Shown here piece by piece: positions 21,233-45,800 of a stretch of 64,000 bases of DNA (positions are counted from its first letter, which is position 1; each line of letters starts with the position of its first letter). The notes beneath the pieces are model-generated. The model did no database searches. It was not told the origin of the DNA and saw only the letters and a list, made by a program, of their open reading frames with translations. A program made the translations under genes and the position numbers. Location of the stretch: the IMG/VR virus record IMGVR_UViG_3300017731_000001; one strand, written 5' to 3'. The stretch comes from a virus.

Positions 21233-21233
21233 A

Positions 21234-22476: not shown

Positions 22477-22521
22477 AATGCAAAGTTGTTAAATACTTAA
22501 AACATCCAAATAAAACTTAAA

Positions 22522-23457: not shown

Positions 23458-23502
23458 ACCATCAATCAAAATAAATAAGTAAAACAAATTACAAAACTTC
23501 GC

Positions 23503-23730: not shown

Positions 23731-23732
23731 TC

Positions 23733-23789: not shown

Positions 23790-23817
23790 ATACGTATCAA
23801 AAGAACCCACCCCACTC

Positions 23818-25142: not shown

Positions 25143-25240
25143 GGAAGTGGAGGGGAGACCCGACACGACACACCCAGAGGCAACACACATAAGAGCAGAG
25201 ACAAACCTCTGCCGCCTCTCATCCACATTCTCTTTCTAGC

Positions 25241-25681: not shown

Positions 25682-26013
25682 CATCAATGCTTTTCACTTC
25701 CGGACAATCATCACACTCACATCTTGCTCAAAGTGTATTTGAGTTCTTTACATCACTCTATGGTGTAAAGAGTGATGTTGAAGTATTTCATACAGATCTC
25801 ACTGATGACAATGCATTTGGTTTTACTGAAATCAATGGTGATGAGCAATTCATTCAGATTCACAATGATTTGAATGAGAATGATTACATTACCACACTAT
25901 TGCATGAACTTGTTCATGTTGTTCAGAATGAAAATGGTCAGTTTGATGACACTCAGAGAGAGAAGGAGGCATATGAGTTAGAGTCTATCCTGTTCAACCG
26001 GTTCGGCAAATGA
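25678..26013 (+). CDS. Small HExxH zinc-metallopeptidase-like protein
   Basis: TLLHELVHVVQ followed by EKEAY. Confidence 0.65.
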   Translation: MTSMLFTSGQSSHSHLAQSVFEFFTSLYGVKSDVEVFHTDLTDDNAFGFTEINGDEQFIQIHNDLNENDYITTLLHELVHVVQNENGQFDDTQREKEAYELESILFNRFGK

Positions 26014-26052
26014 CACAAGGGGGTTGACACAGACCTCCAACTCGTGTATATT
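25995..26052 (+). promoter_or_regulatory. Early-promoter element: CAACCGGT-N6-AATGACAC, TTGACA-N17-TATATT
   Basis: Repeated motif family; stop codon of the upstream gene lies in the right half-site. Confidence 0.75.
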
Positions 26053-26125
26053 AGGTTCATGGGAGAGGAAGTGCCCTAAAGACTCCACATTCTATAATCC
26101 CACCTACATGGGTGGCGTCATTCCA

Positions 26126-26827
26126 ATGACTGTAATGTTCAAATCCGATCTTTCAAAAATTCGTATCACACGCCAATTTGAGACAAATATTGCTCTTGCT
26201 GAGGGTATTTGTCATACAGAAAATATTAGTGATACCGATCTCAAGAAACTGATTAACTTCAAGTCTCTTGATCGTCTTGCTGAACTTCTTTGTACCAATC
26301 GTGAATACGTCTATGAGAAGTGTAAAGCAGACTATGAGTTTGCTTTAGCTGTTGCTCATGGCACTGCTATTCTTGCCTCACGTCAAGGTTCAAAGGATGA
26401 ATCTTACGTTCTTGATCAGATTAACCGCGTCTCTAGTGGTTATGGTATCTACGTACAATCTCTGAACAATCAGGATCTTCGTCCTACAAAGGATGGACGC
26501 CTGTTGAACAAAGCAGAGTTCCAAGAGTCTGGTCTTGATAAACTTGAGTGCCTCAAGTCTATCGATGGTGTGATCAACGGTAATGTAGAAGGATACATCT
26601 TTGCCAAGATTTGTTTTGGTGAAGGTGGACATCAGGATAATGTGTTCCACGAAGCAGCACACTTTGCTGACTGGGCAGAACAGTATGGTGAGGAAGGCAA
26701 AGTATATGTCATCCTCATCGATACTGACCTGACTAACAAGTTTGATCGTCTTAAGTTTAACTACGACTCTGACACAGTTTGGGTCGTTGATCATGTAGAA
26801 TTCCAGCAACGTCTTGGTATTGAATGA
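26126..26827 (+). CDS. Putative restriction endonuclease partner of the downstream MTase
   Basis: SRQG, KSIDG...IFAK, GGHQDN pattern; ATGA overlap with the MTase; start moved downstream of the promoter. Confidence 0.45.
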   Translation: MTVMFKSDLSKIRITRQFETNIALAEGICHTENISDTDLKKLINFKSLDRLAELLCTNREYVYEKCKADYEFALAVAHGTAILASRQGSKDESYVLDQINRVSSGYGIYVQSLNNQDLRPTKDGRLLNKAEFQESGLDKLECLKSIDGVINGNVEGYIFAKICFGEGGHQDNVFHEAAHFADWAEQYGEEGKVYVILIDTDLTNKFDRLKFNYDSDTVWVVDHVEFQQRLGIE

Positions 26828-27795
26828 GTAAGCAACTCCTGGGTCAGTATTATACAACGACTGACCCATTCAACAACTCCGGTGCATTCCGTTCCTGGTA
26901 TCAGATGGTGCCCAAGACTACAATCTTGGAACCATTTGCAGGTGCGGGGCACCTTTTTTCGTATGTAAATGCAGAGTGGCATGGATATGATATTGAGCCC
27001 AATCATCCTGATATAGAGTATAGAAATACATTTGAACAGTTTCCTACTGGGTACAGAGTGTGTATCACTAACCCACCATACCTTGCGAAGACAGTAGTAT
27101 CACGTAAGAAACTACCAGTGCAACTAATACATGAAGACATGTACCTTGATGCACTACAATTAATGCTGGATAACTGTGAGTACGTCGCTGCAATCATACC
27201 CAGTACATTCTGGAACCAAAGATTATTCAAGGATAGACTGTATGCATGGGATAAGTTTGATATGCAACTATTCACAGATACTGATGCACCCGCAGGTGTT
27301 GCATATTTTGTTCCGCATAGAGTAGAACACACACGAACATTTGTCAATGGTGAGGAGATTGTGCTCACATCTGACAACACACCAACAAAAACTGATTTTC
27401 ATGTGCGCTTCAACCCACGCGACCTAGCACCCATCCTCGTAAATGGAATTGATACAAATACACAGAATAACATTCATCTCCGTATGTTACAGGACAATGA
27501 CATACCATCACTAGTGAATAGTACTGGTGAGTGTAAGAATACTAACAGAAATCACTTCCCAATTGAGTCAACAATGGTAAAAGAGGCAGATCTACCCGCA
27601 ATCAATGCAATGATAGACCAATGGAGAGATGAGACTATGGATTTTTTCCTTACTAGTTTCAAGTCTCCCATGGCATCAGGCAAGTACAGAAAACGGATCA
27701 GTTTCATGGAAGTCAGGTGGTTGCTTTGGAAATTCTATATGCCAGTTGAAGAAGTGTCACAGAACCCATTGGAAAGTGCTCTGTATACCCTATAA
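26824..27795 (+). CDS. DNA N6-adenine methyltransferase, gamma class
   Basis: GQYYT, motif I LEPFAGAG, motif IV TNPPY. Confidence 0.88.
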   Translation: MSKQLLGQYYTTTDPFNNSGAFRSWYQMVPKTTILEPFAGAGHLFSYVNAEWHGYDIEPNHPDIEYRNTFEQFPTGYRVCITNPPYLAKTVVSRKKLPVQLIHEDMYLDALQLMLDNCEYVAAIIPSTFWNQRLFKDRLYAWDKFDMQLFTDTDAPAGVAYFVPHRVEHTRTFVNGEEIVLTSDNTPTKTDFHVRFNPRDLAPILVNGIDTNTQNNIHLRMLQDNDIPSLVNSTGECKNTNRNHFPIESTMVKEADLPAINAMIDQWRDETMDFFLTSFKSPMASGKYRKRISFMEVRWLLWKFYMPVEEVSQNPLESALYTL

Positions 27796-27796
27796 T
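27739..27796 (+). promoter_or_regulatory. Early-promoter element inside the MTase 3' end: ATGCCAGT-TGAAGA-AGTGTCAC ... TATAAT
   Basis: Repeated motif family; the MTase stop codon falls in the -10 box. Confidence 0.75.
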
Positions 27797-27822
27797 AACT
27801 ACATAAGCAACCAACCCCACCC

Positions 27823-28089
27823 ATGCAACTTACAAACTCCGTCTGTGTCGTTGATTTCTTCCCTGAGGCATTCATTGCCGAGGCAGATCCTATCACAGGA
27901 ATGAAGGTTGTTGTTAAGCGTTTCCAGAAGCGTGTCACTTTCCGTGCCAATGGTCAAAAATCTTATAGCACTGTGACCATGCTCACTGCCAAGAATGAGT
28001 GGGCAGAGCGTATTGCCAATGGTGCAACAGTTACTAACTACAACACCGACAAAATGGATCGTTCCGAGTACACTCCAATGGGTTGCTGA
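27823..28089 (+). CDS. Hypothetical early protein
   Basis: 88-aa ORF right after the promoter. Confidence 0.75.
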   Translation: MQLTNSVCVVDFFPEAFIAEADPITGMKVVVKRFQKRVTFRANGQKSYSTVTMLTAKNEWAERIANGATVTNYNTDKMDRSEYTPMGC

Positions 28090-28091
28090 TT

Positions 28092-28238
28092 ATGTTTACC
28101 ACAGAAGACCATGAGTTTATCGATTTTCTCTTCGGTAAACTCACTTCTCTTACTGACACTGAGATGATTGATTTGCAGGATGATGATTCATGCTGCGATC
28201 ACCTTGAATTTGAACAACTAACTCTCCCCGAATCATGA
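28092..28238 (+). CDS. Small acidic hypothetical protein
   Basis: MFTTEDHEFIDFLFGKL...; tight packing with neighbours. Confidence 0.6.
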   Translation: MFTTEDHEFIDFLFGKLTSLTDTEMIDLQDDDSCCDHLEFEQLTLPES

Positions 28239-28483
28239 ACCCACAATTTTCTGGTGTATTTACAACGGTCAAAGATCATGGTGGAGTCTATGCAGTTTGT
28301 ACTGAAGGTGAATTATTTTACTCTCCAATGTATGAAGATGGTAGTGTAAATTTTGAGGAGTTTGAAATTGTAGATTTTTGGGATTCTAAAATTGATCCAG
28401 AGGAACTTGAAAAAATTCAATCGGTATTGATTGATATGATGCAGATTGCTGGTCTGTATTTTAAGTCCATGGTGCCAGTTTAA
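28235..28483 (+). CDS. Hypothetical protein
   Basis: 82-aa ORF; last codons (VPV*) are encoded by the palindrome motif. Confidence 0.7.
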   Translation: MNPQFSGVFTTVKDHGGVYAVCTEGELFYSPMYEDGSVNFEEFEIVDFWDSKIDPEELEKIQSVLIDMMQIAGLYFKSMVPV

Positions 28484-28529
28484 CCGGTGTCACACGGCAT
28501 CTTGAAACCCTCTCAGGATGCCCTATAAT
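28472..28529 (+). promoter_or_regulatory. Early-promoter element: GTGCCAGT-TTAACC-GGTGTCAC, hairpin GGCATC/GATGCC around TTGAAA, TATAAT
   Basis: Repeated motif family; 30 nt to -10. Confidence 0.8.
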
Positions 28530-28553
28530 ACATTCATACAAGGGAAACCACCC

Positions 28554-28940
28554 ATGACTGCCACCTTCACAGATTACGTTGCTCAACAGGATGCACGTAA
28601 CACCATTCAGTTGAATGTCACTAAGTATGCTCTCATGCTTTGTGATGCACTGCAACAGTCTCATCAACGTTCACATCCAAATGGTCGCAACTATTCTTAT
28701 GCACTGATTTCTGGTCGTAAGTATCACAAAGTCATGCAGTGTGTAGATGGTCAGACTGAATCAGTTCATGCCTTCATTGATAAGAAGACCGGTGAAGTTT
28801 ACAAGGCAGCATCATACAAAGCACCAGCAAAAGGTGTACGTTTCAATCTGCTAATCATCGAAGAACGTGAGTTTGTGTTGGAAAATTGTGATTGGGCAGG
28901 TGGATATCTCTATCGTAATGCATACTATCAAGGTGCATGA
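28554..28940 (+). CDS. Conserved-type phage hypothetical protein
   Basis: GRKYHKV...SVHAFIDKKTGEVYKAASYKAPAKGVRFNL; start moved downstream of the promoter. Confidence 0.75.
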   Translation: MTATFTDYVAQQDARNTIQLNVTKYALMLCDALQQSHQRSHPNGRNYSYALISGRKYHKVMQCVDGQTESVHAFIDKKTGEVYKAASYKAPAKGVRFNLLIIEEREFVLENCDWAGGYLYRNAYYQGA

Positions 28941-29077
28941 TAGAATTTAATGAAGAACAATACTGTCTTATTATGGAGGCAGTAGAGGATTATGCTATGC
29001 TAGTTGATGAAGAAACCTCCTTCAAATGTGAGGAGATTAACTCTATTATTCAGGCACATCTTGATGAATTACACTAA
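28937..29077 (+). CDS. Small acidic hypothetical protein
   Basis: ATGA overlap; 46 aa by hand translation. Confidence 0.55.
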   Translation: MIEFNEEQYCLIMEAVEDYAMLVDEETSFKCEEINSIIQAHLDELH

Positions 29078-29264
29078 AGGACAACTGATTGATGCACTTG
29101 TGGCAGAGTGGGACTATCTTTGCCATGATGATTATGACCCAGAAGATCCAACACCAGAAGAATATCGTAAAGAGATGGAAGAACTTACAATCGAACAATT
29201 GATTGAAGAAACATCAACTGGTGAAGGTTACACTCTTGATGAATTTATGGAGAACCATTCATGA
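29064..29264 (+). CDS. Small acidic hypothetical protein
   Basis: MNYTKGQLIDALVAEWDYLCHDD... Confidence 0.7.
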   Translation: MNYTKGQLIDALVAEWDYLCHDDYDPEDPTPEEYRKEMEELTIEQLIEETSTGEGYTLDEFMENHS

Positions 29265-29644
29265 CACACGAATACGATCTCACGGACCAATCTGACCTTG
29301 ATATGTTGGATGAGGTTGATGGTGAGTATTACAATTGGGACCAGAATCACTCTGGTTATTTGTGGTTGACTGATGCATGTGTGGAGAAGTATGGATTAGA
29401 GAAGGGTATGGATGTAGAACCCATTGACTGGGATATTTGGGATGATGAGTATTATGCTGAATACAAAGAGAGAGGATTAAAGTGGGATTTTTATATTCAA
29501 CAATATGCCTCAGTGCATGATAAGGATGGAAAGTATCTCCGTGATTGCACTTATGAAGACTGGGAGGTATGTAAGGCAAATGGTATTAAGGAAGAAATGT
29601 TAAGTGATGAAGGTTGCGAAGTTATGGGATGGTGCGACGGATGA
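29261..29644 (+). CDS. Acidic hypothetical protein
   Basis: 127-aa ORF with ATGA overlaps on both sides. Confidence 0.7.
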   Translation: MTHEYDLTDQSDLDMLDEVDGEYYNWDQNHSGYLWLTDACVEKYGLEKGMDVEPIDWDIWDDEYYAEYKERGLKWDFYIQQYASVHDKDGKYLRDCTYEDWEVCKANGIKEEMLSDEGCEVMGWCDG

Positions 29645-29799
29645 AAGTATCATGTGATCGATGGGTTGTCTCATGGAAACGTGAGAAGAAAAATGGTTAT
29701 ACTTCAACCCAGCAGGTTGTGGTCTATGGAATCGAAAATGTTGAGCACGTCATCAACACAATGGTTCCGACAGATGAATGGAGTGTAACACCGGCATGA
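29641..29799 (+). CDS. Hypothetical protein
   Basis: MKVSCDRWVVSW...; ATGA overlap. Confidence 0.6.
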   Translation: MKVSCDRWVVSWKREKKNGYTSTQQVVVYGIENVEHVINTMVPTDEWSVTPA

Positions 29800-29891
29800 C
29801 TTCCACACACAAACTAATCTTTATAGCATCCTTTATGTGGTTTATGAATTGGGGAACACGATTAACCTATTCTCTTCTGAGTGGATTATGA
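29796..29891 (+). CDS. Small hydrophobic peptide (31 aa)
   Basis: MTSTHKLIFIASFMWFMNWGTRLTYSLLSGL; ATGA overlap. Confidence 0.5.
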   Translation: MTSTHKLIFIASFMWFMNWGTRLTYSLLSGL

Positions 29892-29905
29892 TTGAAGTTC
29901 CTCCA

Positions 29906-29934
29906 TTGACATGTGGTATAAATTAAAGTAAAAT
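29906..29934 (+). promoter_or_regulatory. Sigma70-like promoter TTGACA-N17-TAAAAT
   Basis: Near-consensus, intergenic. Confidence 0.7.
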
Positions 29935-29949
29935 AGTAACACACTTGAG

Positions 29950-30135
29950 GTGAACCCCATGGAAGAAAGACTTTTCAAAATTCAAGAGTTGAGTACAGTC
30001 GGGTGGGAGGATGTTGTTGAGGACGACAATTCTAATCGTAAATTGACTAAGGAACAATGTAATGCCAAACTGCAAGGTTATCTCGGAATTGGAATCGCAC
30101 CAGACAGACTCAGAGCAGTTATTGACAACGATTGA
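29950..30135 (+). CDS. Hypothetical protein
   Basis: 61-aa ORF after the promoter. Confidence 0.7.
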   Translation: MNPMEERLFKIQELSTVGWEDVVEDDNSNRKLTKEQCNAKLQGYLGIGIAPDRLRAVIDND

Positions 30136-30424
30136 ACTTCCGCGTGATTTCACACATCAATCTCCAAAAGGTTTCTCATATGAAGTTACAGAGCATAGAA
30201 AAAATATGCTTGCTATTTGGATTCTCAACCATGGTATGTTCTCTTATACTGATACACCTCCCCGATCAATCTGGGGATTCTATAGTACAAAGAAGAGATG
30301 CTATCATGCGCCTATTAACTCCACCAAGCACGGAGATAAGGTAGATATTAGTTCTACGACTCCATATACCGCAATGCAACTCAACCTCAACCCTCTTGAA
30401 TATGCACTATACTCCAAAAGTTGA
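30122..30424 (+). CDS. Hypothetical protein
   Basis: Likely TTG start (MTTIELPRDF); SIWGFY...YHAPINS...TPYTAM. Confidence 0.7.
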   Translation: MTTIELPRDFTHQSPKGFSYEVTEHRKNMLAIWILNHGMFSYTDTPPRSIWGFYSTKKRCYHAPINSTKHGDKVDISSTTPYTAMQLNLNPLEYALYSKS

Positions 30425-30698
30425 TGACTATGTTATTTGGAATCATAATGGTTTAGTTCATAAGGGTTGGGTATATTTTGTGGATGAACTGTATATTACG
30501 ATTGAGACTGGTATCAAACCAAAACCTAATTGTCAATATACAAAGAATGAGAAACACAAATACATTCATACACTCTTACTATGTCATCCATACTATTGGA
30601 AAGAGTTAGAGTATGTTCATACAAGGAAGAATAAGTACGGCAAAACCTTAGATGAGATGGATATATACGATCGGTTTGATAATGTTGAGGTAGATTAA
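30402..30698 (+). CDS. Hypothetical protein
   Basis: YTPKVDDYVIW...GWVYF...YITIE. Confidence 0.7.
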   Translation: MHYTPKVDDYVIWNHNGLVHKGWVYFVDELYITIETGIKPKPNCQYTKNEKHKYIHTLLLCHPYYWKELEYVHTRKNKYGKTLDEMDIYDRFDNVEVD

Positions 30699-30702
30699 AT
30701 TT

Positions 30703-31353
30703 GTGAATCCATATAAAAAGGTATTATTCCCAATACACATCTTCCAGGCTCATATCAAGGAGAATGAGTTAATTAAGGAGGAATTGTCTCATGCGATTGA
30801 GAACTATCGTGATAAGGGAGATTCAAAAGTACCCGAAGGATGGTTGACTGATAATCTACTGACATCATTTGATGCAACTAATTTTAACTTCAAACTCTTT
30901 TCTGAGAGTCATGTGACACAGAGATTGTATGAAAAATATATTCTTAAGTTCTTTGATAGACCGACAAAGGTCAATGTACTCGAAATGTGGTTTAATTATT
31001 ATAGCAATGGTGAGTATCAAGAAGTGCATACACATGTGCAACCAGATATATTTGGTATTCGACCACATTTCTCATGTATTCATTATTTAAAGTTTGATCC
31101 TGAGGTACATCAACCAGTGGTATTCAATGACCCAATCGGAATACTAAGGCAAACCAATTCAATTGAACTTGACTCTAATAACTATAATGATGAGTATGAA
31201 CCACAATTAAGAGAGGGTAGCATACTCATGTTCCCTCCATACTTGGAGCACTATGTACCAAAATCAGAACCAACACCCGACAATCCAAGAATCAGTGTGG
31301 CATTTAATATTATCCTGACAGAATACGGAGAGGACAAATTGTATGGACCTTAA
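30703..31353 (+). CDS. 2OG-Fe(II) oxygenase-like protein
   Basis: WFNYY...QEVHTH...FSCIHY...EG.ILMFPPYLEHYV...RISVAFN. Confidence 0.85.
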   Translation: MNPYKKVLFPIHIFQAHIKENELIKEELSHAIENYRDKGDSKVPEGWLTDNLLTSFDATNFNFKLFSESHVTQRLYEKYILKFFDRPTKVNVLEMWFNYYSNGEYQEVHTHVQPDIFGIRPHFSCIHYLKFDPEVHQPVVFNDPIGILRQTNSIELDSNNYNDEYEPQLREGSILMFPPYLEHYVPKSEPTPDNPRISVAFNIILTEYGEDKLYGP

Positions 31354-31822
31354 TTATATCGATCAGTTTTTTTCTGAGGAGGAGCATCAGGTTATTCATG
31401 AGTATTGTATGAGTGCAGAGTATTCATATGGTGAGAGAGATGATATGAATTTACCTGTGACGGGTATGATTCATAATATACCAGAGACAGAGTTTGTTTA
31501 TAAATTAATCAAAAAGAGGTTAAAAGATTCATCAGAGCAAGTGCAGGGTAAGAAACTCTACCGAATGTATGTGAATTGTTTTGTACCATGTGAGCGTCCA
31601 TATTTTCATACCGATGGAGAGGAAGGAATTACATTCATCTATTATCCAAATATGGGATGGGACAAAGATGATGGAGGAGAGACACAATTTCTAATGAATG
31701 ATGAACTGTATGGTATATTACCAATACCGAATCGTATGGTCGTGTTTAGTGCGAATCTATTGCATCGTGCCACAACATTCAGAAATGACCACCGATTTAC
31801 CGTCGCAATTAAATATATGTGA
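31343..31822 (+). CDS. 2OG-Fe(II) oxygenase (prolyl-hydroxylase-like)
   Basis: HTD...GGET...PNRMVVF...LHRA...R. Confidence 0.88.
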   Translation: MDLNYIDQFFSEEEHQVIHEYCMSAEYSYGERDDMNLPVTGMIHNIPETEFVYKLIKKRLKDSSEQVQGKKLYRMYVNCFVPCERPYFHTDGEEGITFIYYPNMGWDKDDGGETQFLMNDELYGILPIPNRMVVFSANLLHRATTFRNDHRFTVAIKYM

Positions 31823-31854
31823 ATAAATAAATATGGGTAAAAACTGTTTCTGTA

Positions 31855-33045
31855 ATGGCAATTAATAAAACACAAACCAAATACTTTAGTTCCGGAGAGA
31901 TTAAATTCAGTGCCATTCGGGATACTTTCGGTGATTTAGCAGGAACGAATGTAAGTGCATCTGATTATCTAAGAAATGCCGGTGATGATGTAGATTGGTC
32001 TGATGATTCTAATATCACTCCCAGAGTACCAAATGCGACAGAGAATGAGAATGTCGCGACATCATCTAATTGGAGTACATCACAATTAAGAGATTCGATT
32101 GTAGAATATAATATCACACAAAGTGGAAATGATGAAGAATTAGAATTTGCGGATACGAATGCATCACAATGGAATTCTAATTTATCAAAGAATGTTCCAA
32201 AGAGAATGGATGTGGAGGGTGTTGTTTATGCGAATGAGACCAGTAAGTATGCACTGAAGTTTAGTCAGGGAGAATATAATAATCTAACGATTAATGTACC
32301 GGACGGTGGTGCAATCTATGGTGAGGGTGGTGCTGCCGGAGGAGGAAATGGTGGTGGTGCCCTGTATATTGAGAATACTGCCAGTTATGATAATGTATCG
32401 ATCACATTAGGAAGTAATGGTCGAATATGGGCCGGAGGTGGCGGTGGAAATAGTGGGAATCCTGGAAATAGTGGTTCATCTATTAGTTGCAGTAGTACAA
32501 GTAGTGCCGGTACGCAGGTCAATAGTGGAATGAATGCCGAGCGATATTGGAATTATAGTGTAGCAGCTGCTGCATGTAGAAGTGCATATGGAAATAATGC
32601 AAAGTTAGTAAATGCTGCTCCGGTTGCCGGAACTGTAAGAAATCGTTGTCGTGGTTCAGGTGGAATAGGATTTCGTAGAGGACAAGGATGGAATGGTTTG
32701 AGTGGATATAGTTGTAATCCGTCTTGGAATTTAGATTGTAGTTTTACTAACTATAATAATATTGGTGGTGGTAGTGGAGGTTCTGGAGGTAGTGGAGGAG
32801 TCGGACAAGGATTTAGTAATCAAGGTGGACCTGGTGCCGGTAATCCTGGTAATAGTGGTAATACTAACTCATGTGCGAACTCAGGTGCAAGTAGCAGTGG
32901 AAATCCTGGAAATAGTGGTGGCACAGGAGGAACATGGGGAGTTTCGGCAGGAGGTAGTGCCGGATTTGCGATTAAGAAAAAGAGTACAAGTGTCAATCAA
33001 GGATTATCGGTTAATACTGTCAAGGGCAGTATCAGTAATATATAA
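31855..33045 (+). CDS. Glycine-rich adhesin-like virion protein (gp38-like glycine-rich motifs)
   Basis: IYGEGG..GG.GGGAL, IWAGGGGG, GNPG/GNSG repeats; late-type ATAAATA at 31823/31827. Confidence 0.65.
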   Translation: MAINKTQTKYFSSGEIKFSAIRDTFGDLAGTNVSASDYLRNAGDDVDWSDDSNITPRVPNATENENVATSSNWSTSQLRDSIVEYNITQSGNDEELEFADTNASQWNSNLSKNVPKRMDVEGVVYANETSKYALKFSQGEYNNLTINVPDGGAIYGEGGAAGGGNGGGALYIENTASYDNVSITLGSNGRIWAGGGGGNSGNPGNSGSSISCSSTSSAGTQVNSGMNAERYWNYSVAAAACRSAYGNNAKLVNAAPVAGTVRNRCRGSGGIGFRRGQGWNGLSGYSCNPSWNLDCSFTNYNNIGGGSGGSGGSGGVGQGFSNQGGPGAGNPGNSGNTNSCANSGASSSGNPGNSGGTGGTWGVSAGGSAGFAIKKKSTSVNQGLSVNTVKGSISNI

Positions 33046-33066
33046 TTGAAAGTATGATATAATAGT

Positions 33067-33405
33067 ATGATGAATGATGTGAAACTTGCGACAATTGTAT
33101 TTCATTTTCTGGATGAATTCTTTTTGCAGGAAGCATCCGGAAAGGAATGGAGTGCATCAAAGAACTGTCAAAAGGAAAGGTGGTCAATTTGTGATGAATG
33201 TGAGTATTTTGATGAACCCGAGGAGGGATGTAAGTATTGTGGATGTTATCTACCACATAAGATAAAGGATCCATTTGGTGATTGTCCATTAGATAAGTGG
33301 ATATCAAATAGTGAGCAGTGGTATGATGAGGACTATGATTATCTCAAACAATTAATTATTGAAAAGAACCCAGAACTGAAGGAGTATTTGAATGGAAACA
33401 ATTGA
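33067..33405 (+). CDS. Small Cys-rich protein (R..IC..C...C..CGC....K.....CP..KW)
   Basis: ERWSICDECEYF...GCKYCGCYLPHK...DCPLDKW. Confidence 0.75.
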   Translation: MMNDVKLATIVFHFLDEFFLQEASGKEWSASKNCQKERWSICDECEYFDEPEEGCKYCGCYLPHKIKDPFGDCPLDKWISNSEQWYDEDYDYLKQLIIEKNPELKEYLNGNN

Positions 33406-33994
33406 ACTCAAAGGTGAATATAGTGATTTTATAGGAACGTATTCTAATGTATATGATTCTAAGTTCTGTGATGGTATTATAAAGTCTTTTGATTATTATC
33501 AGGATATTGATGCAGTGTTCTGTGAAGACAATCAATTTGAGAACAGTAATGCCGGACGATTTGATTGGGCATTAGATTTGGCAGAGATGAATCCTGCAAT
33601 GAAAGATAATCAATCACAGTTATTAAATGAAACATTACAACCATGTTTTAATGAATATGTAAATGTCTTTGGTCATCTAAAGACTGTACCAATGTATTCA
33701 CTCTCACAGAAGATACAGAAGACTCCTGCCGGTGGTGGTTATCATGTCTGGCACGATGAGAACTCAAACTTAGAACAATCCAATCGATGTCTTGTATGGA
33801 TGATCTATTTGAATGATGATTATCAAGGTGGAGAAACAGAGTTTTTATATTATAAGAAAAGAATACAACCTGAGAAGGGAAAGTTACTAATATGGCCCGC
33901 AGGTATGACACATTGCCATAGAGGAGGGTTAGTCTTAGAAGGAACAAAGTATATTGCAACAGGTTGGTTCTATTTGGCAAATTACAATGGATGA
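33392..33994 (+). CDS. 2OG-Fe(II) oxygenase (prolyl 4-hydroxylase-like)
   Basis: YHVWHDE...IYLND..GGETEF...LLIWPA..TH.HRG...KYIATGW. Confidence 0.9.
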   Translation: METIELKGEYSDFIGTYSNVYDSKFCDGIIKSFDYYQDIDAVFCEDNQFENSNAGRFDWALDLAEMNPAMKDNQSQLLNETLQPCFNEYVNVFGHLKTVPMYSLSQKIQKTPAGGGYHVWHDENSNLEQSNRCLVWMIYLNDDYQGGETEFLYYKKRIQPEKGKLLIWPAGMTHCHRGGLVLEGTKYIATGWFYLANYNG

Positions 33995-34283
33995 TAATAA
34001 CAAGGACGCACAGAGTGCTCATCCCCAGGGGGAAGAGTTTCCTACAATTAAGGAACAAGGAAAGAGTCTTGCAAAGTTTACATTTGAAGTGGTCAAGGAT
34101 GGTGTATTAAATCTATCACCAGGAGAAGTATTCGCAAGTGATGAATTAAAAAAAGAACGATTGGATATATGTAAGAAGTGTGAGTATTATAGTATGAGAC
34201 AGAATAGATGTAAACACTGTGGTTGTTGGTTAGAACATAAGGTTAAGTTCAAGGTAAGTGAGTGTCCTATCTACAAATGGTGA
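33987..34283 (+). CDS. Small Cys-rich protein, paralogue of 33067-33405
   Basis: ERLDICKKCEYY...RCKHCGCWLEHK...ECPIYKW; start set to MDDNNK. Confidence 0.75.
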   Translation: MDDNNKDAQSAHPQGEEFPTIKEQGKSLAKFTFEVVKDGVLNLSPGEVFASDELKKERLDICKKCEYYSMRQNRCKHCGCWLEHKVKFKVSECPIYKW

Positions 34284-34496
34284 ATGATAATGAATGAGAT
34301 AGTTAAGGTATGGAAGTATACTCTGGGTAGTTTTAATGATGAAAAGACTGAGAGATATGATAATATTATTTGTATTCTAAGAACGGGTATATTACTGACT
34401 TATCTGTTGACGAATGTCTTTATTGTGGCAGGAGTGGTGAGACACTGGAATTCAGTTAAAAGTGTATCCATTGATACAGAATACATTAAAAAATAG
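34284..34496 (+). CDS. Small membrane protein
   Basis: WKYTLGSF...single hydrophobic helix...VRHW. Confidence 0.7.
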   Translation: MIMNEIVKVWKYTLGSFNDEKTERYDNIICILRTGILLTYLLTNVFIVAGVVRHWNSVKSVSIDTEYIKK

Positions 34497-34540
34497 GTTT
34501 TAAATATGATTATAAATATAAAACTCTTTTTTAACAAGGT

Positions 34541-34601
34541 TGTGGAAAAGTGTATTATTTGTGTGGATAAACCCTTATATTAGTTGTTTATCTGTGGAAA
34601 A
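34541..34601 (-). promoter_or_regulatory. Three co-oriented DnaA boxes
   Basis: TGTGGAAAA 34541-49, TGTGGATAA 34562-70, TGTGGAAAA 34593-601 (TTTTCCACA/TTATCCACA on the minus strand) in an AT-rich intergenic region. Confidence 0.65.
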
Positions 34602-34611
34602 CTATGAGTAT

Positions 34612-34700
34612 AGTATCTTCCAAGTATCTTCCAAGTATCTTCTAAGTATCTCTTAAACCTTAGATCTAATATCTTTAAGTATCTCATAAACCTCACATCT
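34612..34700. repeat. 11-bp tandem repeat AGTATCTTC(C/T)A (three copies plus degenerate ones) and a ~25-bp imperfect duplication
   Basis: agtatcttcca agtatcttcca agtatcttcta agtatctctta; taagtatctcttaaaccttagatct vs taagtatctcataaacctcacatct. Confidence 0.9.
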
Positions 34701-34715
34701 TATGCAAGTTTAGCG

Positions 34716-34744
34716 AGCGTATCATGGAGAGCGCGGTTTGTCAA
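34716..34744 (-). promoter_or_regulatory. Minus-strand sigma70-like promoter TTGACA-N17-TACGCT (extended -10)
   Basis: Reverse complement of 34716-34744; points into the repeat/DnaA-box region. Confidence 0.55.
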
Positions 34745-34845
34745 CCCACGGGACGCGAAATTTTTCTCGACGAGACATAAATTGTAACATAAAGACATCT
34801 TATAGTATAAATATATTGATTATAAATCTCGTCTAGATCTTACAT

Positions 34846-34875
34846 TTGACATAGAACGAGATTACATGATATAAT
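34846..34875 (+). promoter_or_regulatory. Sigma70-like promoter TTGACA-N18-TATAAT (extended -10)
   Basis: Consensus boxes; divergent from the 34716-34744 promoter. Confidence 0.7.
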
Positions 34876-34902
34876 CATACAATAGATATCTCGACGAGAA
34901 CC

Positions 34903-35082
34903 ATGAACGACTACGAGACATTCTACATATGGGACTACGAGACATCATGTCATGATACTCGCGACGAGATGTATATGCTCGACGAGATGCATCATGATAC
35001 ACAATACACATATGATCTAGATGATGAATATGCACGAGATAGCACAGACTATCAGGCACTTGCATATAGACATTACGCATGA
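34903..35082 (+). CDS. Small acidic Tyr/Asp-rich ORF (59 aa) overlapping the ACGAGA array
   Basis: MNDYETFYIWDYETSCHDTRDEMYMLDEM...DYQALAYRHYA. Confidence 0.5.
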   Translation: MNDYETFYIWDYETSCHDTRDEMYMLDEMHHDTQYTYDLDDEYARDSTDYQALAYRHYA

Positions 35083-35112
35083 TATAATACGTAAACATCA
35101 CACGAGATACAC

Positions 35113-35265
35113 ATGTACGCACAGAAACGAATTGTGAGTGTTACATTAGACATTGAGTGTTATGAAGATCTAGATGTAGAGAATATCGATTGGACTGATA
35201 TTCTAGGTCTAGAAGGTGATGAACATATTGACATTAGTATAAAAGAAACAGTTAACAACTACTAG
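35113..35265 (+). CDS. Small acidic hypothetical protein (50 aa)
   Basis: MYAQKRIVSVTLDIECYEDLD...; preceded by TTGCAT(35060)-N17-TATAAT. Confidence 0.65.
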   Translation: MYAQKRIVSVTLDIECYEDLDVENIDWTDILGLEGDEHIDISIKETVNNY

Positions 35266-35266
35266 T

Positions 35267-35363
35267 GTGTCAGTTTGTAGATTGGCACACTTAAAACTAG
35301 TGTCTTGTGCCAATCGAACTAGTGTCACACGAGGCGGCCACAGACCTGAAAATCGTGTATTGT
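35267..35363 (+). promoter_or_regulatory. Tandem pair of palindrome motifs (35267-88, 35307-28) plus -10-like TATTGT
   Basis: GTGTCAGT-TTGTAG-ATTGGCAC and GTGCCAAT-CGAACT-AGTGTCAC; 29 nt from the second to TATTGT. Confidence 0.75.
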
Positions 35364-35388
35364 AGTTAAGTCATCAGAAATTCACCAA

Positions 35389-35628
35389 ATGCAAGGTTAC
35401 AACGGTTGGGCAAATTGGGAGACCTGGAATGTTGCTCTCTGGATCGGAAATGATCCTGGTTTGTATGAACTGGCATGTGAAACTGCAAGGGATGGTGGAA
35501 CTTATGGTCACCTGGTAAGTATGATTCTCGATTGTGGAAGTAAAGAAACACCAGACGGATGTAAGTGGGACGATGTAAAGATAGACGGAATCGAGGTTAA
35601 TAACATGATGAAAGAACTTATAGACTAA
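35389..35628 (+). CDS. Conserved-type phage hypothetical protein (YNGW.NWETWNVALW)
   Basis: 79-aa ORF; stop codon supplied by the TAAGTAACAC repeat. Confidence 0.75.
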   Translation: MQGYNGWANWETWNVALWIGNDPGLYELACETARDGGTYGHLVSMILDCGSKETPDGCKWDDVKIDGIEVNNMMKELID

Positions 35629-35710
35629 GTAACACTCAGGTCAGCTGACCGTGGACAGTCGGACTAGTGTCACAAGGTTTCGGCACAGACCTCAAAACCG
35701 TGTATTGTAG
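35623..35710 (+). repeat. 88-bp direct repeat copy 1 (gene-end motif + palindrome + promoter)
   Basis: 78/88 identical to 36395-36482 by manual alignment. Confidence 0.9.
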
Positions 35711-35736
35711 TTTCAAGTCAAACAATTTTCATCAAA

Positions 35737-35886
35737 ATGGATTACGACACTTTCGACACTGACATTTTCTCTGAGATTAATGACATGCCAGGAGAGATTT
35801 ATGATGTGATTGAATACAAGGAAGAAGGAGAAGATGATAAGAAGTTTGATGTGGAAGAATATATTGAAGGAAATACAGACTACTAA
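35737..35886 (+). CDS. Very acidic mini-protein (49 aa)
   Basis: MDYDTFDTDIFSEINDMPGEIYDV...GNTDY; stop supplied by the TAAGTAACAC repeat. Confidence 0.7.
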   Translation: MDYDTFDTDIFSEINDMPGEIYDVIEYKEEGEDDKKFDVEEYIEGNTDY

Positions 35887-35921
35887 GTAACACTCACTCA
35901 TTCACCCTATCTAACACTACC

Positions 35922-36077
35922 ATGACCGAACTTGAAATGCAAGCAATTGAAGTCCTTGAAATCGTTGAGGATTCAGTAGAATACATTTGTGCCGAAAATG
36001 TTATCAGTGGAGAAAAGGTCTGGACTATGATAGCAGCACTTGCAGATGCCAAACTTGCACAATTCCCTGATAATTGA
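35922..36077 (+). CDS. Small hypothetical protein (51 aa)
   Basis: MTELEMQAIEVLEIVEDSVEYIC...SGEKVW; followed by GACTAAGTAACACTCA. Confidence 0.7.
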   Translation: MTELEMQAIEVLEIVEDSVEYICAENVISGEKVWTMIAALADAKLAQFPDN

Positions 36078-36113
36078 GAGACTAAGTAACACTCACCTCA
36101 CTTCATTCAAATC

Positions 36114-36404
36114 ATGAACTACACTCTCAAGCAACTTCAAGACCGTGTTAATAGTATGATCAAAGAACAGGGAGAAGATGCAGAATGTGCCGCATGGATT
36201 TATACCAAGGAAGATATTCATATGAAGGATGAAAATGGTGAGGTTGATTATGATATTGAGGTAAATGATCCTACACTTGTTGCACGTATCTTTGATGATG
36301 TTGGGCAGATAGATTACATCTACACCATGATTCAAGACTGTGTGGATGAGGTTACAGAGGAGCAACTAATGTTACAACAGCAGGAATTAGTGGAGACTAA
36401 GTAA
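36114..36404 (+). CDS. Hypothetical protein
   Basis: 96-aa ORF ending inside the repeat (ACT AAG TAA). Confidence 0.75.
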   Translation: MNYTLKQLQDRVNSMIKEQGEDAECAAWIYTKEDIHMKDENGEVDYDIEVNDPTLVARIFDDVGQIDYIYTMIQDCVDEVTEEQLMLQQQELVETK

Positions 36405-36482
36405 CACTCAGGTCCGCTGCCCGTGGACGGTTGAGTTAGTGTCACACGATTTTGGCACAGACCTCAAAACCGTGTATTGTAG
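36395..36482 (+). repeat. 88-bp direct repeat copy 2
   Basis: See copy 1; contains TGGACGGT-TGAGTT-AGTGTCAC and TATTGT. Confidence 0.9.
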
Positions 36483-36504
36483 AAGGGTGAAAAAAATCAA
36501 CCAA

Positions 36505-36720
36505 ATGCAAACCTACACCGACCCTTGCACCTATGCCATGCAAAGTGACATGCGCCAACTGAAAGAGATGATCGCATCAGACCTTGCAAACTACATGTTG
36601 GAGATGATGCCTCCCCTTGATATGTGTGTCGATTGGGTATGTGATCGTTTTGCATTGGATGCAACCGACGAACTGATAGATTTCGTTGCTGATTGTCATG
36701 ATGAGTTCTTCGGTAACTGA
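36505..36720 (+). CDS. Hypothetical protein
   Basis: MQTYTDPCTY...; start moved downstream of the promoter. Confidence 0.7.
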   Translation: MQTYTDPCTYAMQSDMRQLKEMIASDLANYMLEMMPPLDMCVDWVCDRFALDATDELIDFVADCHDEFFGN

Positions 36721-36729
36721 TTCAAACCT

Positions 36730-36837
36730 ATGAAATTCACCATCGTTAAGTTCAAAGGTCGTTGGGTCAAAGTATCCAACAAACTATCACCTCCGACTGA
36801 ATGGGTTACAGTCATCAACAAAGCAAACCTTAAGTAA
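36730..36837 (+). CDS. Small basic peptide (35 aa)
   Basis: MKFTIVKFKGRWVKVSNKLSPPTEWVTVINKANLK; ends in TAAGTAACAC. Confidence 0.55.
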   Translation: MKFTIVKFKGRWVKVSNKLSPPTEWVTVINKANLK

Positions 36838-36846
36838 CACAAACTC

Positions 36847-36978
36847 ATGCGTATCTGTCTTTCTGCCATTGTTATTTTGTTGGGTGCTAATCTTCTCATC
36901 GATCTGCTGGATTCTGATATGGTACAAATTATGCAAGAACGTAACGAAACAATCCAGCGCAGCATAGACCGCATGTGA
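36847..36978 (+). CDS. Small membrane/signal-anchored peptide (43 aa)
   Basis: MRICLSAIVILLGANLLIDLL...; stop lies inside the next palindrome. Confidence 0.6.
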   Translation: MRICLSAIVILLGANLLIDLLDSDMVQIMQERNETIQRSIDRM

Positions 36979-37031
36979 CAGTCGGACTAGTGCCACACGA
37001 TTTTGGCACGACCCTCAAAACCGTGTATTGT
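36975..37031 (+). promoter_or_regulatory. Early-promoter element GTGACAGT-CGGACT-AGTGCCAC ... TATTGT
   Basis: Repeated motif family; shares GGCAC...CCTCAAAACCGTGTATTGT with the two 88-bp repeat copies. Confidence 0.8.
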
Positions 37032-37084
37032 ATAGAAGTGGAGGGGACAACGCCCGCCACACGCTCTAAACCTCTTCTCTTCTC

Positions 37085-37411
37085 ATGCGTAAAATCGAAA
37101 CCCAGATGAACGTCGCAGTCCAGGCGAACCAGAACTGGACCTCCGGCAACACCAGCGTTTTGACAGAGGACGGCATCTCCAAAGTCTATCTCCATGGCAA
37201 CCTGATCGCTGAGGTTGATGAAGATTCAATGAAACTCTACGACGGCGGTTTCCAGTCCAATACCACCAAATCTCGTCTCAACGCTCTCTGTGATGCGTTC
37301 GGTTATTCTGGCGAAGGCGTATTCCAGAAGAACTGGACCTGGTTCGTCCGTCTCTGGACTGGCACCGAATTCCATACCACTGAGTTCCGGAACGGTATGC
37401 GCCTCGCCTGA
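37085..37411 (+). CDS. Conserved-type cyanophage early protein
   Basis: MRKIETQM...VYLHGNLIA...TTKSRLNAL...VFQK.W.W; strongly C-ending codons. Confidence 0.8.
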   Translation: MRKIETQMNVAVQANQNWTSGNTSVLTEDGISKVYLHGNLIAEVDEDSMKLYDGGFQSNTTKSRLNALCDAFGYSGEGVFQKNWTWFVRLWTGTEFHTTEFRNGMRLA

Positions 37412-37452
37412 TACAAATCTCCCTCTAATCCTTCAAAATCCTAATTCACAAC

Positions 37453-38364
37453 ATGACAAAAAACCTTCACATCGAACATCCCGAAGACACAATCCTTACC
37501 GGAGATACTTCGTTTTTGGTATCTCTCAAACTGAAGGGTGATTTATCAGTGAAGATTGATGGTGCTCCGGCAATCGTTTGGGGGACCAATCCTGCATCGG
37601 GTGAGTTCTTCGTTGGGACCAAATCCGTATTCAACAAAGTAAAGATCAAAATCAACGAATCGCATCAGGACATCGATGCAAACCACACGGGAGAGGTTGC
37701 AACAATTCTGCATAAGTGCTTCGACTATCTACCACGGGTCGGGGGTATTATTCAGGGGGACTTCATCGGATTCGGTGGGTCTGATGAATACACACCGAAC
37801 ACAATCACGTATCAATTCGATGATACCGTAGAAGAGGAAATCATCGTGGCACCTCATACGCTCTACACGGCAGAATCCGACCTACGTGATGCCGTGGCAG
37901 AACCGCTAAGGTTTATGATTACCGATACAGTTTATTGTAAGTTCGTGTTCCCTAAGGCATATATCTGGAGCGGGTATTATGATGACGGATTGGATCAGTT
38001 TGAGATGCCTCCCGTCATAGACTTGATTCGTCAGGTGTATGATAAGACAACATTCGTAAGTGATAGAGACGCCGCACAGATTAAGCAAAATGTGAATAAG
38101 TCAATTCGCGAAGGTTATCCTATGACGAATGAGGACTTCATGGGCAATGAGTCACTTATGCACCTCTACGGGTTGATGATAGTTTTGAAAGAAGAGTTGA
38201 TGAATCAGTGCCGCAATGTAGGTCCTGAGGCATACCTAGGTCAGGATAGAATCGATGGTGAGGGTTATGTTTATTCCACTGAGTTAGGTACATATAAGTT
38301 GGTTAATCGTCAGCAGTTTTCTGTTGCTAACTTCAACAACACTAAGTTCACAACAGTCTCATAA
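37453..38364 (+). CDS. Ligase-like nucleotidyltransferase-fold protein
   Basis: KIDG (motif I KxDG), QGDF (III-like), EGYV (IV), YKLV (V). Confidence 0.55.
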   Translation: MTKNLHIEHPEDTILTGDTSFLVSLKLKGDLSVKIDGAPAIVWGTNPASGEFFVGTKSVFNKVKIKINESHQDIDANHTGEVATILHKCFDYLPRVGGIIQGDFIGFGGSDEYTPNTITYQFDDTVEEEIIVAPHTLYTAESDLRDAVAEPLRFMITDTVYCKFVFPKAYIWSGYYDDGLDQFEMPPVIDLIRQVYDKTTFVSDRDAAQIKQNVNKSIREGYPMTNEDFMGNESLMHLYGLMIVLKEELMNQCRNVGPEAYLGQDRIDGEGYVYSTELGTYKLVNRQQFSVANFNNTKFTTVS

Positions 38365-42868: not shown

Positions 42869-45800
42869 ATGATACAGACTGGATTTGAATCTAAAGTCAA
42901 GATTCAACAAATTATTGACAATCAACTTCCTGAGTTCATTTTGGATGAAAATCCAAAAACAGTAGAATTTTTAAAGCAATATTATATTTCTCAGGAATAT
43001 CAAGGCGGACCAGTTGATATTGTTGATAATTTGGATCAATATCTAAAATTAGATAATCTGACTCCAGAAGTTATAGTTGATAGCACCTATGCCACTTCAG
43101 GAATCTCTTCTACGGATACTACAATCGCCGTAAATAGCACTAAAGGATTCCCAAGTCAATATGGTCTATTTAAGATTAATAATGAGGTTATAACCTATAC
43201 TGGAATCACTACAAATTCATTCACTGGATGTCAACGTGGATTTAGTGGGATTACTTCATACCATAGTGAATTAAATCAAGAGGAACTTGTATTTTCTGAT
43301 ACCTCAAAAGAAAACCATAATGAAGATGCAACAGTATATAATTTAAGTTCTTTATTTTTAAGAGATTTTTATAAAAAATTAAAATATACTTTTGCTCCTG
43401 GATTAGAAGATGTTGATTTTGCAAAAGAATTAAATGCTGGAAATTTTATAAAAGAAGCAAAATCTTTTTATCAATCGAAAGGAACTGACGAATCATTTAG
43501 AATTTTATTTAATGTTTTATATGGAGCAACACCAAGAGTAGTAAATTTAGAAGATTATTTAATTAAACCATCTTCTGCAGAGTATCTCAGAAGAGAAATC
43601 GCAATTGCCGAAGTAATTAGTGGAGATCCTTCAAAATTAGTAGGACAAACAATAACCAAATCTACAGATTCTGGAACTACAGCAGCAATATCTGAACTAG
43701 AACCTTTCACTAGAAATAATAAGCAATATTTTAAATTATCTCTCTTTATTGGATATGACGAATCCTCGACAATTCAGGGCAATTTTGCTATTACCCCTAG
43801 CACAAAAAATATTGAAACTGTTGCCATAGGTGCTTCTGTAATTAGTGTAGACTCTACGATTGGTTTTGCACAGACTGGAATGGTTATTTCTGGTATCAAT
43901 AGCATAACTTATTCTGATAAAACTGTTAATCAATTTATTGGATGTACTGGAGTTGCATCGACAATCTCTTCTGCAAGTAATATTAGATCCGATGAGATTT
44001 ATTTTGGTTATGAAGATGGGGATTCGGATAAAAGAGTAGAAATAAGATTAACTGGAGTATTATCTAATTTTATTCAGGTGTCCGATGATTTAAATATTTC
44101 TGAAGGTGATACAATTTCTGTCAATAATGTTGGTGATTTAATTTTAAACCCAAGTATTGGCAACAGAACATACAAAGAAATTTTTGCAAATTCATGGATA
44201 TACAATACTAGTTCATCTTATGAAATAAAAGATTTTGGTGTTAATTTATCATTAACATTAAAAAGTGAAATCGACAAATCCAGTTTAAAAGAAGGAGATA
44301 GTGTCGAAATTATAGAAAGTAGTGGTAATAATCCAGGAAAAGTAGTATTTCCTACATCATCTTCAAGTATTACTCATGTAGTTGATATTTCTCCCGATAA
44401 AAAATCAATTAGTTTAGATAATTTTACTTTTAATCCAAGTCCCAATGTAGAGTATAGTTTAAGAAGAAAAATTAATAAAGCAAGAAGTACAGGTGCTCCC
44501 ATAGAATATGGAAATTCTGCCATCTTAGGAGATGTTCAAAACGTATATACTGATAGCACAGAAAATTTTGGATATGTTGCATCTAATTCTCTACCATCTT
44601 CAACAACAGGACTTACTACATTCTTTACATATGAAATAACTAAAGAAATTAATTCTGCGTTTATAGATTCTGAAGTAAGTTTAGGAAATATTAATGAACT
44701 TAACAATTATACGACTATTACTTTTTCGGAAAATGCACCATTTCTTACTGGAGATAAAATATTATATAAACCAGATGTCGATCCTCTTGAAGGACTAGTT
44801 GAAGGATCATATTTTGTTGAAGTTCTAGCATCTAATAAAAAAACCATTAAATTATACAATTCTTCATCTTTTATAGGATCGACGGATTTTGCAACTTTTT
44901 CAGTTCCAAGTTCTGGAATGAATAAGCATACTTTTACTTTATTTGAGCAGAGAATTGGAGAAATAGGGGCACAAAAACTTCTTAAAAAATTCTCTATTCC
45001 TCCAAATAATAAAAATGGAAAAGGAGAATTGACCATACCAGGAACTACTGGTATGTTGATTAATGGTGTTGAAGTTGTAAATTATAAATCAGAAGATAAA
45101 ATTTATTATGGACCTTTAAATTCTATAAAGGTATTAAATGGTGGTAGCAATTATGATGTGATTAATTTGCCACAATTATCAGTTTCTGCTGGTTTGGGGA
45201 CAACTGCATTATGTCGTCCGGTAATTCAGGGGTCTATTGAAAGAGTTGACATCGATACTCAGGATTTTGATATTGACAATGTTACTTCAATTAAAGTAAT
45301 TGGTGGAAATGGTACTGGAGCCGATATTAGGGCAGTAGTTGGTAAAAGAGTTAGAGAAGTAAATTTTGATGGACAGTTAATATCGTCAAATGGTGGAGTA
45401 GATAACAATACAAATCAAATAACTTTCTTAACGGATCATAATTTTTCAGATGGTCAAGAAGTAATTTACGATTCTAACAGAAATACAGGAATTGGAGTTG
45501 GAATAGGAACTTCATCTCTAGTTGATGAAGGTTCTTATTTTGTAAAAATTGATAATAATACGACAGTTCAATTATTTGAATCATATGATGATTATTCTTC
45601 AAATAGTAATGTTGTAGGTCTTAGTACTCTTTATACTACGGGTATTCATAAATTTAAAACAAAGGAAAAGACTAAAACAATTTCTTCTGTTGATGTAATT
45701 AATGGTGGAAGTGGATACACTAATAGAAAATTAATTGTTTCTCCAACGGGAATAACCACATCAAATGGTTTGATTAGTTTTAAAAATCATGGATTTGCTG

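Follow-up and report, generated by a model that had tools for sequence, protein, structure and literature searches.

A ten-base stop-codon box at the joints of a variable small-gene region in marine cyanophages

The hyperplastic regions of T4-like and related phages hold most of their unknown, fast-changing genes, which are candidates for host takeover and anti-defence. For marine cyanophages, which are very abundant, little has been documented on the turnover of such genes. Promoter-early stem-loops (PeSLs) are repeated modules of a stem-loop and an early promoter in the hyperplastic regions of RB49/phi1, T4/PST, and KVP40/nt-1 (PMC2839356, PMC4122927). In T4-type phages, recombination takes place between flanking PeSL copies, and inverse PCR has revealed the excised mini-circles (PMC2839356, PMC4122927). 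No dense PeSLs were found in cyanophage S-PM2 (PMC4503421). In this study, we analyzed the IMG/VR virus record IMGVR_UViG_3300017731_000001, a stretch of 64,000 nucleotides (nt) referred to here as the window. The window comes from a phage related to Synechococcus phage S-SKS1 (genus Llyrvirus), with a nucleotide identity of ~78% over the alignable parts. We observed a ten-base box, TAAGTAACAC, at the ends of small genes, two types of intergenic joint that begin with it, the presence of the box and joints in two phage groups, and changes of gene content at the joints. These features probably reflect the shuffling of single genes by homologous recombination at repeated expression joints in the hyperplastic early-gene region of an S-SKS1-like phage, and not an integron.

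The locus resembles the PeSL regions in several respects. Repeated intergenic regulatory modules are packed in a hyperplastic region of small open reading frames (ORFs) of unknown function, the modules bound indels, replacements, and displacements between related phages, and exchange is proposed to occur through recombination between neighbouring copies. The long joints described below may also have the same layout of stem, sigma70-like promoter, and leader. However, the common element here is a box of 10-13 nt that supplies the stop codon of the upstream gene. Half of the joints have neither promoter nor stem and are G-free, unstructured linkers without a Shine-Dalgarno site. Other differences are the weak stems, the marine cyanobacterial host, and the occurrence of one joint family in two phage groups, Llyrvirus-like phages and Kyanoviridae. 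The joints are best filed with PeSL-type shuffling, and the box and the promoter-less joint are new parts. The PeSL concept would thereby be widened from promoter-terminator units to any standardised joint.

We determined the occurrence of the box in the window by pattern search. Five exact copies were found, all on the + strand and within 1.2 kilobases (kb). The longer form GACTAAGTAACACTCA is present at 35623, 36080, and 36395, the variant TACTAAGTAACACTCA at 35881, and TAAGTAACAC alone at 36831. All of these positions had been given correctly in a first-pass annotation of the window made from the letters alone, as confirmed by reading of the region and by the pattern searches. The mean number of box copies expected by chance was 0.21, and five or more copies were reached in none of 100 dinucleotide-preserving shuffles. 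A search allowing one mismatch was not above chance in the window (7 matches against 5.2 expected), and only the exact box was taken as informative there, loose matches being at the chance level. Across genomes, the box is written as TAA[G/C]TAACAC; two of its three reading frames contain a TAA stop. A literature search on the box sequence and on cyanophage intergenic motifs found no description of the box.

The ORF table and the listing of gene ends bore out the first-pass claim that four unrelated small genes take their stop codon from one or the other TAA of the box, with the stop of a fifth lying 2 nt before the box. The genes at 36114-36404 and 36730-36837 stop at the second TAA, and thus these unrelated proteins end in Lys. 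The array consists of seven ORFs of 35-96 amino acids (aa) between two anchor genes, and six of these ORFs match no Pfam family. No other part of the window is as GC-rich (0.45). Other genes of the window encode T4-like tail-tube and baseplate proteins, a helicase, a methylase, and 2OG-Fe(II) oxygenases, all on the + strand. The features of the array are as follows, with the genes between the anchors called cassette genes.

35626, 35884, 36083, 36398, and 36831 (+): starts of the box TAAGTAACAC, by pattern search
35113-35265 (+): left anchor gene of 50 aa with two inverted 9-mers; conserved in 20 loci
35262-35365 (+): inverted repeat with 28-nt arms (35262-35333), then promoter-like module 1 ending in TATTGTAG at 35365; joint opening the variable region
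35389-35628 (+): cassette gene, 79 aa, DUF7249; its stop is the first TAA of box 1
35622-35710 (+): long joint 1, with box GACTAAGTAACACTCA (35623-35638), weak stem, palindrome half-sites, and sigma70-like promoter; an 89-nt repeat of 36394-36482
35737-35886 (+): cassette gene, 49 aa, no Pfam family; its stop is the first TAA of box 2; downstream of it, the loci show six different neighbours
35881-35921 (+): short joint, with box 2 (TACTAAGTAACACTCA) and a G-free unstructured linker containing a second, degenerate box (TCTAACAC); reaches the ATG at 35922
35922-36077 (+): cassette gene, 51 aa, with its own TGA 2 nt before a GACTAAG / GAGACTAAGTAACAC block
36080-36113 (+): short joint, with box 3 and a G-free linker; reaches the ATG at 36114; ~88% identity to the linker before the homologous Kyanoviridae gene
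36114-36404 (+): cassette gene, 96 aa; its stop is the second TAA of box 4
36394-36482 (+): long joint 2, with box 4 (36395-36410), stem, and promoter TTGGCA-17-TATTGT
36505-36720 (+): cassette gene, 71 aa, no box at its end
36730-36840 (+): cassette gene, 35 aa (36730-36837), and box 5 (36831-36840); its stop is the second TAA, and the next ATG follows after just AAACTC
36847-36978 (+): cassette gene, 43 aa, no box; its TGA lies within the left half-site of promoter module 4
36945-37033 (+): joint with promoter-like module 4 (TTGGCA-17-TATTGT), closing the variable region
37085-37411 (+): right anchor gene of 108 aa (Pfam Kyano_Gp96), found in 22 loci
37453-38364: next gene after the right anchor, DUF6267

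The GAGACTAAGTAACAC block that follows the 51-aa gene (35922-36077) is also present at the end of the next gene.

We then compared gene content and order at the joints. The region 34600-37500 of the window was aligned by blastn against 24 loci. The aligned segments ended at 35624/35636, 35896-35916, 36081-36095, and 36393-36410, and at the promoter copies. The 96-aa gene was missing between boxes 3 and 4, which have 18 identical bases in common, in loci L045, L048, L068, L091, and L107. The 79-aa gene was missing between promoter copies in L025, L048, L080, and others, and it was absent in 11 of the 23 comparison loci that have the neighbouring 49-aa gene (35737-35886). Deletions lay between promoter copies as well as between boxes. 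A map of gene families between the anchors at 35113 and 37085 gave 10 distinct complete arrangements, with about 20 families in all. Single families had up to six different neighbours, the 96-aa gene had five different upstream neighbours, and the order of the 96-aa and 71-aa genes was reversed in S-SKS1, L076, and L082. Loci 90-97% identical to the window already differed by one or two cassettes.

The position of the switch was also determined. When loci with the same upstream family and a different downstream family were paired, 160 of the 194 pairs (82%) diverged 10-18 nt past the start of the box. For most families, homology specific to the downstream gene started just ~1-16 nt before its ATG. 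Because divergence follows the box closely and downstream homology starts near the ATG, the sequences define a cassette as a very short leader, an ORF, and a box, with the filler between cassettes taken from a few standard modules. The linkers that follow the 79-aa gene showed all four combinations of two variable sites, which means that crossovers take place inside the linker. Alternative joins were also present in contigs of single seawater metagenomes (for example 35246>35693, 35710>37084, and 35884>36730); these joins come from assembled contigs, and several of them, with short flanks or less than 95% likeness, may represent related phages rather than variants of one population. Contigs assembled from RNA libraries span the region as well, although such assemblies carry no information on transcription, RNA ends, or circles. 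The blastn ends, the 10 arrangements, and the 160 of 194 pairs agree with the expectation of the first-pass annotation that gene order and content change at the motif.

The structure of the joints was examined in a set of every junction that begins with a box in the window, in S-SKS1, and in 22 IMG/VR contigs. The 68 distinct junctions fall into two kinds, in which the box is always the left edge and is followed by six different right-hand contexts. The short joint is composed of TAAGTAACAC, T(C/T)ACTCA, a spacer of C, A, and T only, and a T-run that precedes the next ATG, and it often has a second box TAACTAACAC between the spacer and the T-run. Its linker is 20-50 nt long, has almost no G, and has no Shine-Dalgarno site. 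Short joints are unfolded: the minimum free energy was 0 for the copy in the window, and an S-SKS1 copy gave -2.1 kcal/mol. As read from the sequence, the box and the second box jointly put TAA in all three frames, and the second box lies 3-13 nt upstream of many ATGs. G-free runs of at least 22 nt are common throughout the AT-rich window, and G-depletion alone is not distinctive.

The long joint is composed of the box, TCA, a weak stem, two half-sites (GTGGACAGTCGG / ACTAGTGTCAC), TT(C/T)GGCA, 17 nt, TATTGT, and a conserved leader. In these joints, the box precedes a promoter and not an AUG. The array region has four copies of a promoter-like module of ~89 nt. The layout of palindrome and promoter was also seen by eye, without a box, at seven other upstream places in the window. 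The modules are located as follows.

19975, 21234, 23733, 25083, 25995, 27739, 28472, 35307, 35652, 36424, and 36975 (span 19975-37031): palindrome/promoter modules

Most early-type promoters of the window have an imperfect palindrome, GTG(C/A)CAGT..ACT(A)GTGTCAC, directly 5' of the -35 element. Some long joints have a second box 25 nt after the first, which is either canonical (CTAAGTAACACTCA) or diverged (CTAAATGATACTCA, with a GTATCA/TGATAC hairpin). Judged from their sequence, these double boxes look like the footprint of an emptied cassette. They are located as follows.

L001 (S-SKS1), 2148-2200 and 3833-3885: double-box long joints
L036, 1788-1825: double-box long joint
L076, 4447-4485: double-box long joint

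The distribution of the box was determined in related phages. Conclusions at the genome scale are drawn from S-SKS1, which is the closest complete genome, and from three Kyanoviridae records. The syntenic 7 kb of S-SKS1 contained 14 box matches with at most one mismatch, compared to 0.6 expected, and the box ends genes there as well. In the whole 208-kb genome, 10 of the 12 exact copies of TAA[G/C]TAACAC lay within 3.3 kb. The two remaining copies are antisense and inside large genes, and are probably due to chance. The box also ends genes in more than 20 viral metagenome contigs of IMG/VR and in Kyanoviridae, which are T4-like cyanomyoviruses. A 14-mer scan of viral contigs gave many single matches consistent with chance, and only contigs with multiple copies or a promoter module were kept. 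A 53-nt linker of S-SKS1 matched solely Synechococcus phages (66 of 50,697 records). The same type of linker is found in the homologous small-gene region of the Kyanoviridae S-CAM8, S-MbCM6, and S-RIM12, where the boxes are clustered in 1-1.5 kb; an example from S-CAM8 is ...TAAGTAACACAAACTCAACTCACACTAACTAACAC...ATG. The linker before the 96-aa gene was ~88% identical between the window and two Kyanoviridae phages, compared to 64-69% at the third codon positions of the gene. The motif is therefore not unique to this genome, a possibility that the first-pass annotation had named, together with a fixed gene order, as fatal to its reading, since it is present in S-SKS1, in IMG/VR contigs, and in Kyanoviridae.

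TAA[G/C]TAACAC and the two standard joints would mark exchange seams that are common to two phage groups infecting the same host, and the box may be usable to find cassette boundaries in viromes. The host uses few Shine-Dalgarno sites, and the promoter-less linkers are possibly portable expression adapters in such a host.

The mechanism of exchange was approached through the recombination genes. No tyrosine or serine recombinase (PF00589 / PF00239) was found in the whole S-SKS1 genome, where the positive controls worked, and a scan of 30 window ORFs likewise gave none. S-SKS1 has one UvsX/RecA-like gene. The first-pass annotation had proposed a cassette-capture system with integron-like logic and had suggested a genome-wide search for a recombinase. 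Its cassette part holds, as genes turn over at the box; the integron-like capture part is not supported, given that S-SKS1 has no such recombinase, that the short joint has a minimum free energy of 0, and that crossovers lie in linkers and promoter copies. We read the locus as homologous shuffling and not as an integron because S-SKS1 has no integrase or resolvase, a UvsX/RecA-like gene is present there, and crossovers are also found in linkers and promoter copies.

The mechanism that we propose starts from the standardised joints between which each small ORF lies, with the box as the invariant 5' edge of the joint. In one variant, the box is followed by a G-free linker of 20-50 nt and by a T-rich run before the ATG, and the linker often has a second box in which the remaining frame is closed. 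In the other, which is PeSL-like, a weak stem comes after the box, and then a palindromic box, a sigma70-like promoter of presumably early type, and a leader. Since the joints are repeated every few hundred bases and are common to co-infecting cyanophages, they could serve as homology patches, at which the general recombination system of the phage (UvsX/RecA type) would delete, insert, and reorder single ORFs. The exchange would be homologous rather than site-specific, and the promoter-like modules would presumably fire early. The joints may have been kept mainly as expression signals and also since matching joints recombine more readily.

Several observations weigh against this mechanism. At 10-13 nt, the box offers little length for homologous exchange to be efficient. 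Yet at least six unrelated right-hand contexts follow it, and its arrival at these places is thus not explained by passive homology alone. Homology alone also does not explain the near-invariance of the box or its persistence across two phage groups. Breakpoints at the edge of homology are partly expected by construction; unrelated genes cannot align, and therefore the break positions alone do not prove that the box causes recombination. Only two of the four promoter modules, with TTGGCA-17-TATTGT, passed a scan for the sigma70 consensus, and the stems of the long joints were no more stable than shuffled sequence (z -0.1 to -1.7). The boxes are limited to one region of 1.5-3.3 kb per genome, and this confinement, together with the antisense copies in S-SKS1, argues that the box is not a general expression signal. 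In addition, a Kyanoviridae-like contig, L059 (IMGVR_UViG_3300009079_000037), has an array that looks more like a set of binding sites or an amplification product, and that could also be read as stacked empty joints. This array lies at about 2105-2265 on the reverse complement, directly 3' of the last small gene of the homologous region, and consists of seven tandem copies of CACTAAGTAACAC with a 24-nt period and no ORFs between them. The constancy of the box may be due to its being a selected expression signal (a two-frame stop, an unstructured initiation region, or a RegA operator). It could also be a DNA half-site, given its likeness to ACTAGTGTCAC of the promoter palindrome, or it could give a transmission advantage, in which joints matching those of co-infecting phages would recombine more often.

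The box could instead be mainly a binding site for a regulator, either a RegA-type RNA operator or a DNA half-site for a palindrome-binding factor, with the shuffling incidental. RegA sites are unstructured and A+U-rich and adjoin the AUG, and RB69 RegA selects UAA repeats, with upstream stop codons proposed as parts of the operator (PMC3014915). The linkers are similar to the RegA operators of T4 and RB69 (PMC3014915) in that an unstructured, UAA-containing sequence lies just 5' of early-gene starts in phages that encode RegA. RegA (PF01818) was encoded by the three genomes searched, S-SKS1, S-CAM8, and S-MbCM6, with E values of 1e-45 to 1e-47.

S-SKS1 82672-83034: RegA homolog (PF01818, E ~1e-46)
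S-CAM8 127594-127956: RegA homolog (PF01818, E ~1e-46)
S-MbCM6 129649-130011: RegA homolog (PF01818, E ~1e-46)

These homologs are candidate binders for the UAA-rich unstructured linkers. The short distance of the second box from many ATGs, the stronger conservation of the linker than of synonymous sites, and the resemblance of the L059 array to iterated binding sites also fit a regulator site. The gene-end box ACTAAGTAACAC also resembles the right half-site ACTAGTGTCAC of the promoter palindrome. However, this likeness is limited to 9 of 11 positions with one gap, each genome has its boxes in one small region and not at early genes generally, and in the sequences they also occur where no AUG follows, as in the long joints with their promoter after the box. 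We therefore consider it unlikely that the box is mainly a regulator site.

A related possibility is that TAA[G/C]TAACAC is the recognition site of a dedicated factor, a nuclease or recombination mediator or an RNA/DNA-binding regulator, through which co-infecting marine cyanophages of different families would be actively driven, or licensed, to exchange single-ORF cassettes. If such a factor existed, lytic phages would have an integron-like gene exchange without an integrase; we regard this as distinctly doubtful. A narrower form holds that a phage recombinase or nuclease, dedicated to this task and still unrecognised, would both recognise the box and cross over in it, in an integron-like way but without attC or IntI. 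The locus is similar to an integron in its single promoter-less ORFs, its conserved 3'-boundary element, and the variable number and order of genes at one conserved locus. The authors of the PeSL studies left open whether exchange was homologous or site-specific (PMC2839356, PMC4122927). The switch directly after one 10-nt box, its persistence across two phage groups, and the tandem empty boxes (two copies 25 nt apart in L036 and L076, and seven at a 24-nt period in L059) would also fit site-specific capture. In contrast to an integron, no integrase was found in S-SKS1 or in the scanned window ORFs, there is no attC hairpin or attI site here, internal promoters are present, and crossovers are not at one site. 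No inverted repeat or hairpin was found around the box, and the short joints fold at 0 to -2 kcal/mol and are not attC-like, in agreement with the absence of attC structure in the first-pass annotation. Crossovers inside the promoter copies and linkers, the absence of tyrosine and serine recombinases from S-SKS1 and from the scanned window ORFs, and the two cassettes without any box (36505-36720 and 36847-36978) make site-specific capture very unlikely.

The repeated gene ends could also be left from tandem duplication and divergence, that is, from local copying of one ancestral gene with its joint. The long joints are 89-nt repeats, and among the relatives a few families are linked, namely c44, c20, and the 36505 family as distant paralogs (hmmsearch E 1e-4 to 1e-7) and c55 with c22. 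The distant paralogs at 1186-1335 and 2489-2767 of S-SKS1 (L001) and at 36505-36720 of the window have a common motif like LYDFVxEMxPDLxMCxDW, the sole trace of duplication with divergence noted in the array. However, profile searches showed no significant mutual similarity among about a dozen other cassette families, and the seven cassette genes of the window are mutually unrelated (best E 0.03), which contradicts the local duplication of homologous genes that the first-pass annotation had raised against its own reading. One cassette gene is a DUF7249 member and an anchor is Kyano_Gp96, and the same gene has different neighbours in different phages. Duplication is thus a highly improbable origin of the array.

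The pattern search confirmed the first-pass observation of two inverted 9-mers, TGAGTGTTA, at 35135-35143 and 35154-35162 in the first gene of the array (50 aa, 35113-35265). This 9-mer has seven copies on both strands, compared to 0.89 expected, four of which are the box motif itself. Long-range RNA pairing of the boxes with these inverted copies, also offered by the first-pass annotation, could control processing or translation. It gains some appeal from their lying within 20 nt of each other and from an AGTGTTA core that is invariant in 12 distinct homologs while nearby third codon positions vary. However, it is extremely improbable, as both copies encode protein, each in a different frame of a conserved gene, the array is separated from them by a strong inverted repeat and a promoter module, a 9-nt duplex is weak over more than 500 nt, and their flanking base did not co-vary with the TCA/TTA box variants across 20 loci.

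Other features of the window were also noted. The non-coding stretch at 34600-35110 contains three phased AGTATCTTCCA 11-mers (34612-34651) and numerous repeats of ACGAGA. At 34846-34875, it has a TTGACA-18-TATAAT promoter that is perfect and includes TG. This stretch may be an origin or control region. A DNA methyltransferase and a restriction endonuclease, as annotated in relatives, lie at 26016-27727 and are 95% identical to those of the Kyanoviridae ACG-2014i and ACG-2014e. As the window is otherwise much less similar to these phages, this segment looks on sequence comparison like a recent transfer between phage families. Two very large ORFs, of 4009 aa (42869-54898) and at least 2500 aa (56501-64000, running off the window), follow a baseplate gp6-like gene and lie on either side of a gp8-like gene.

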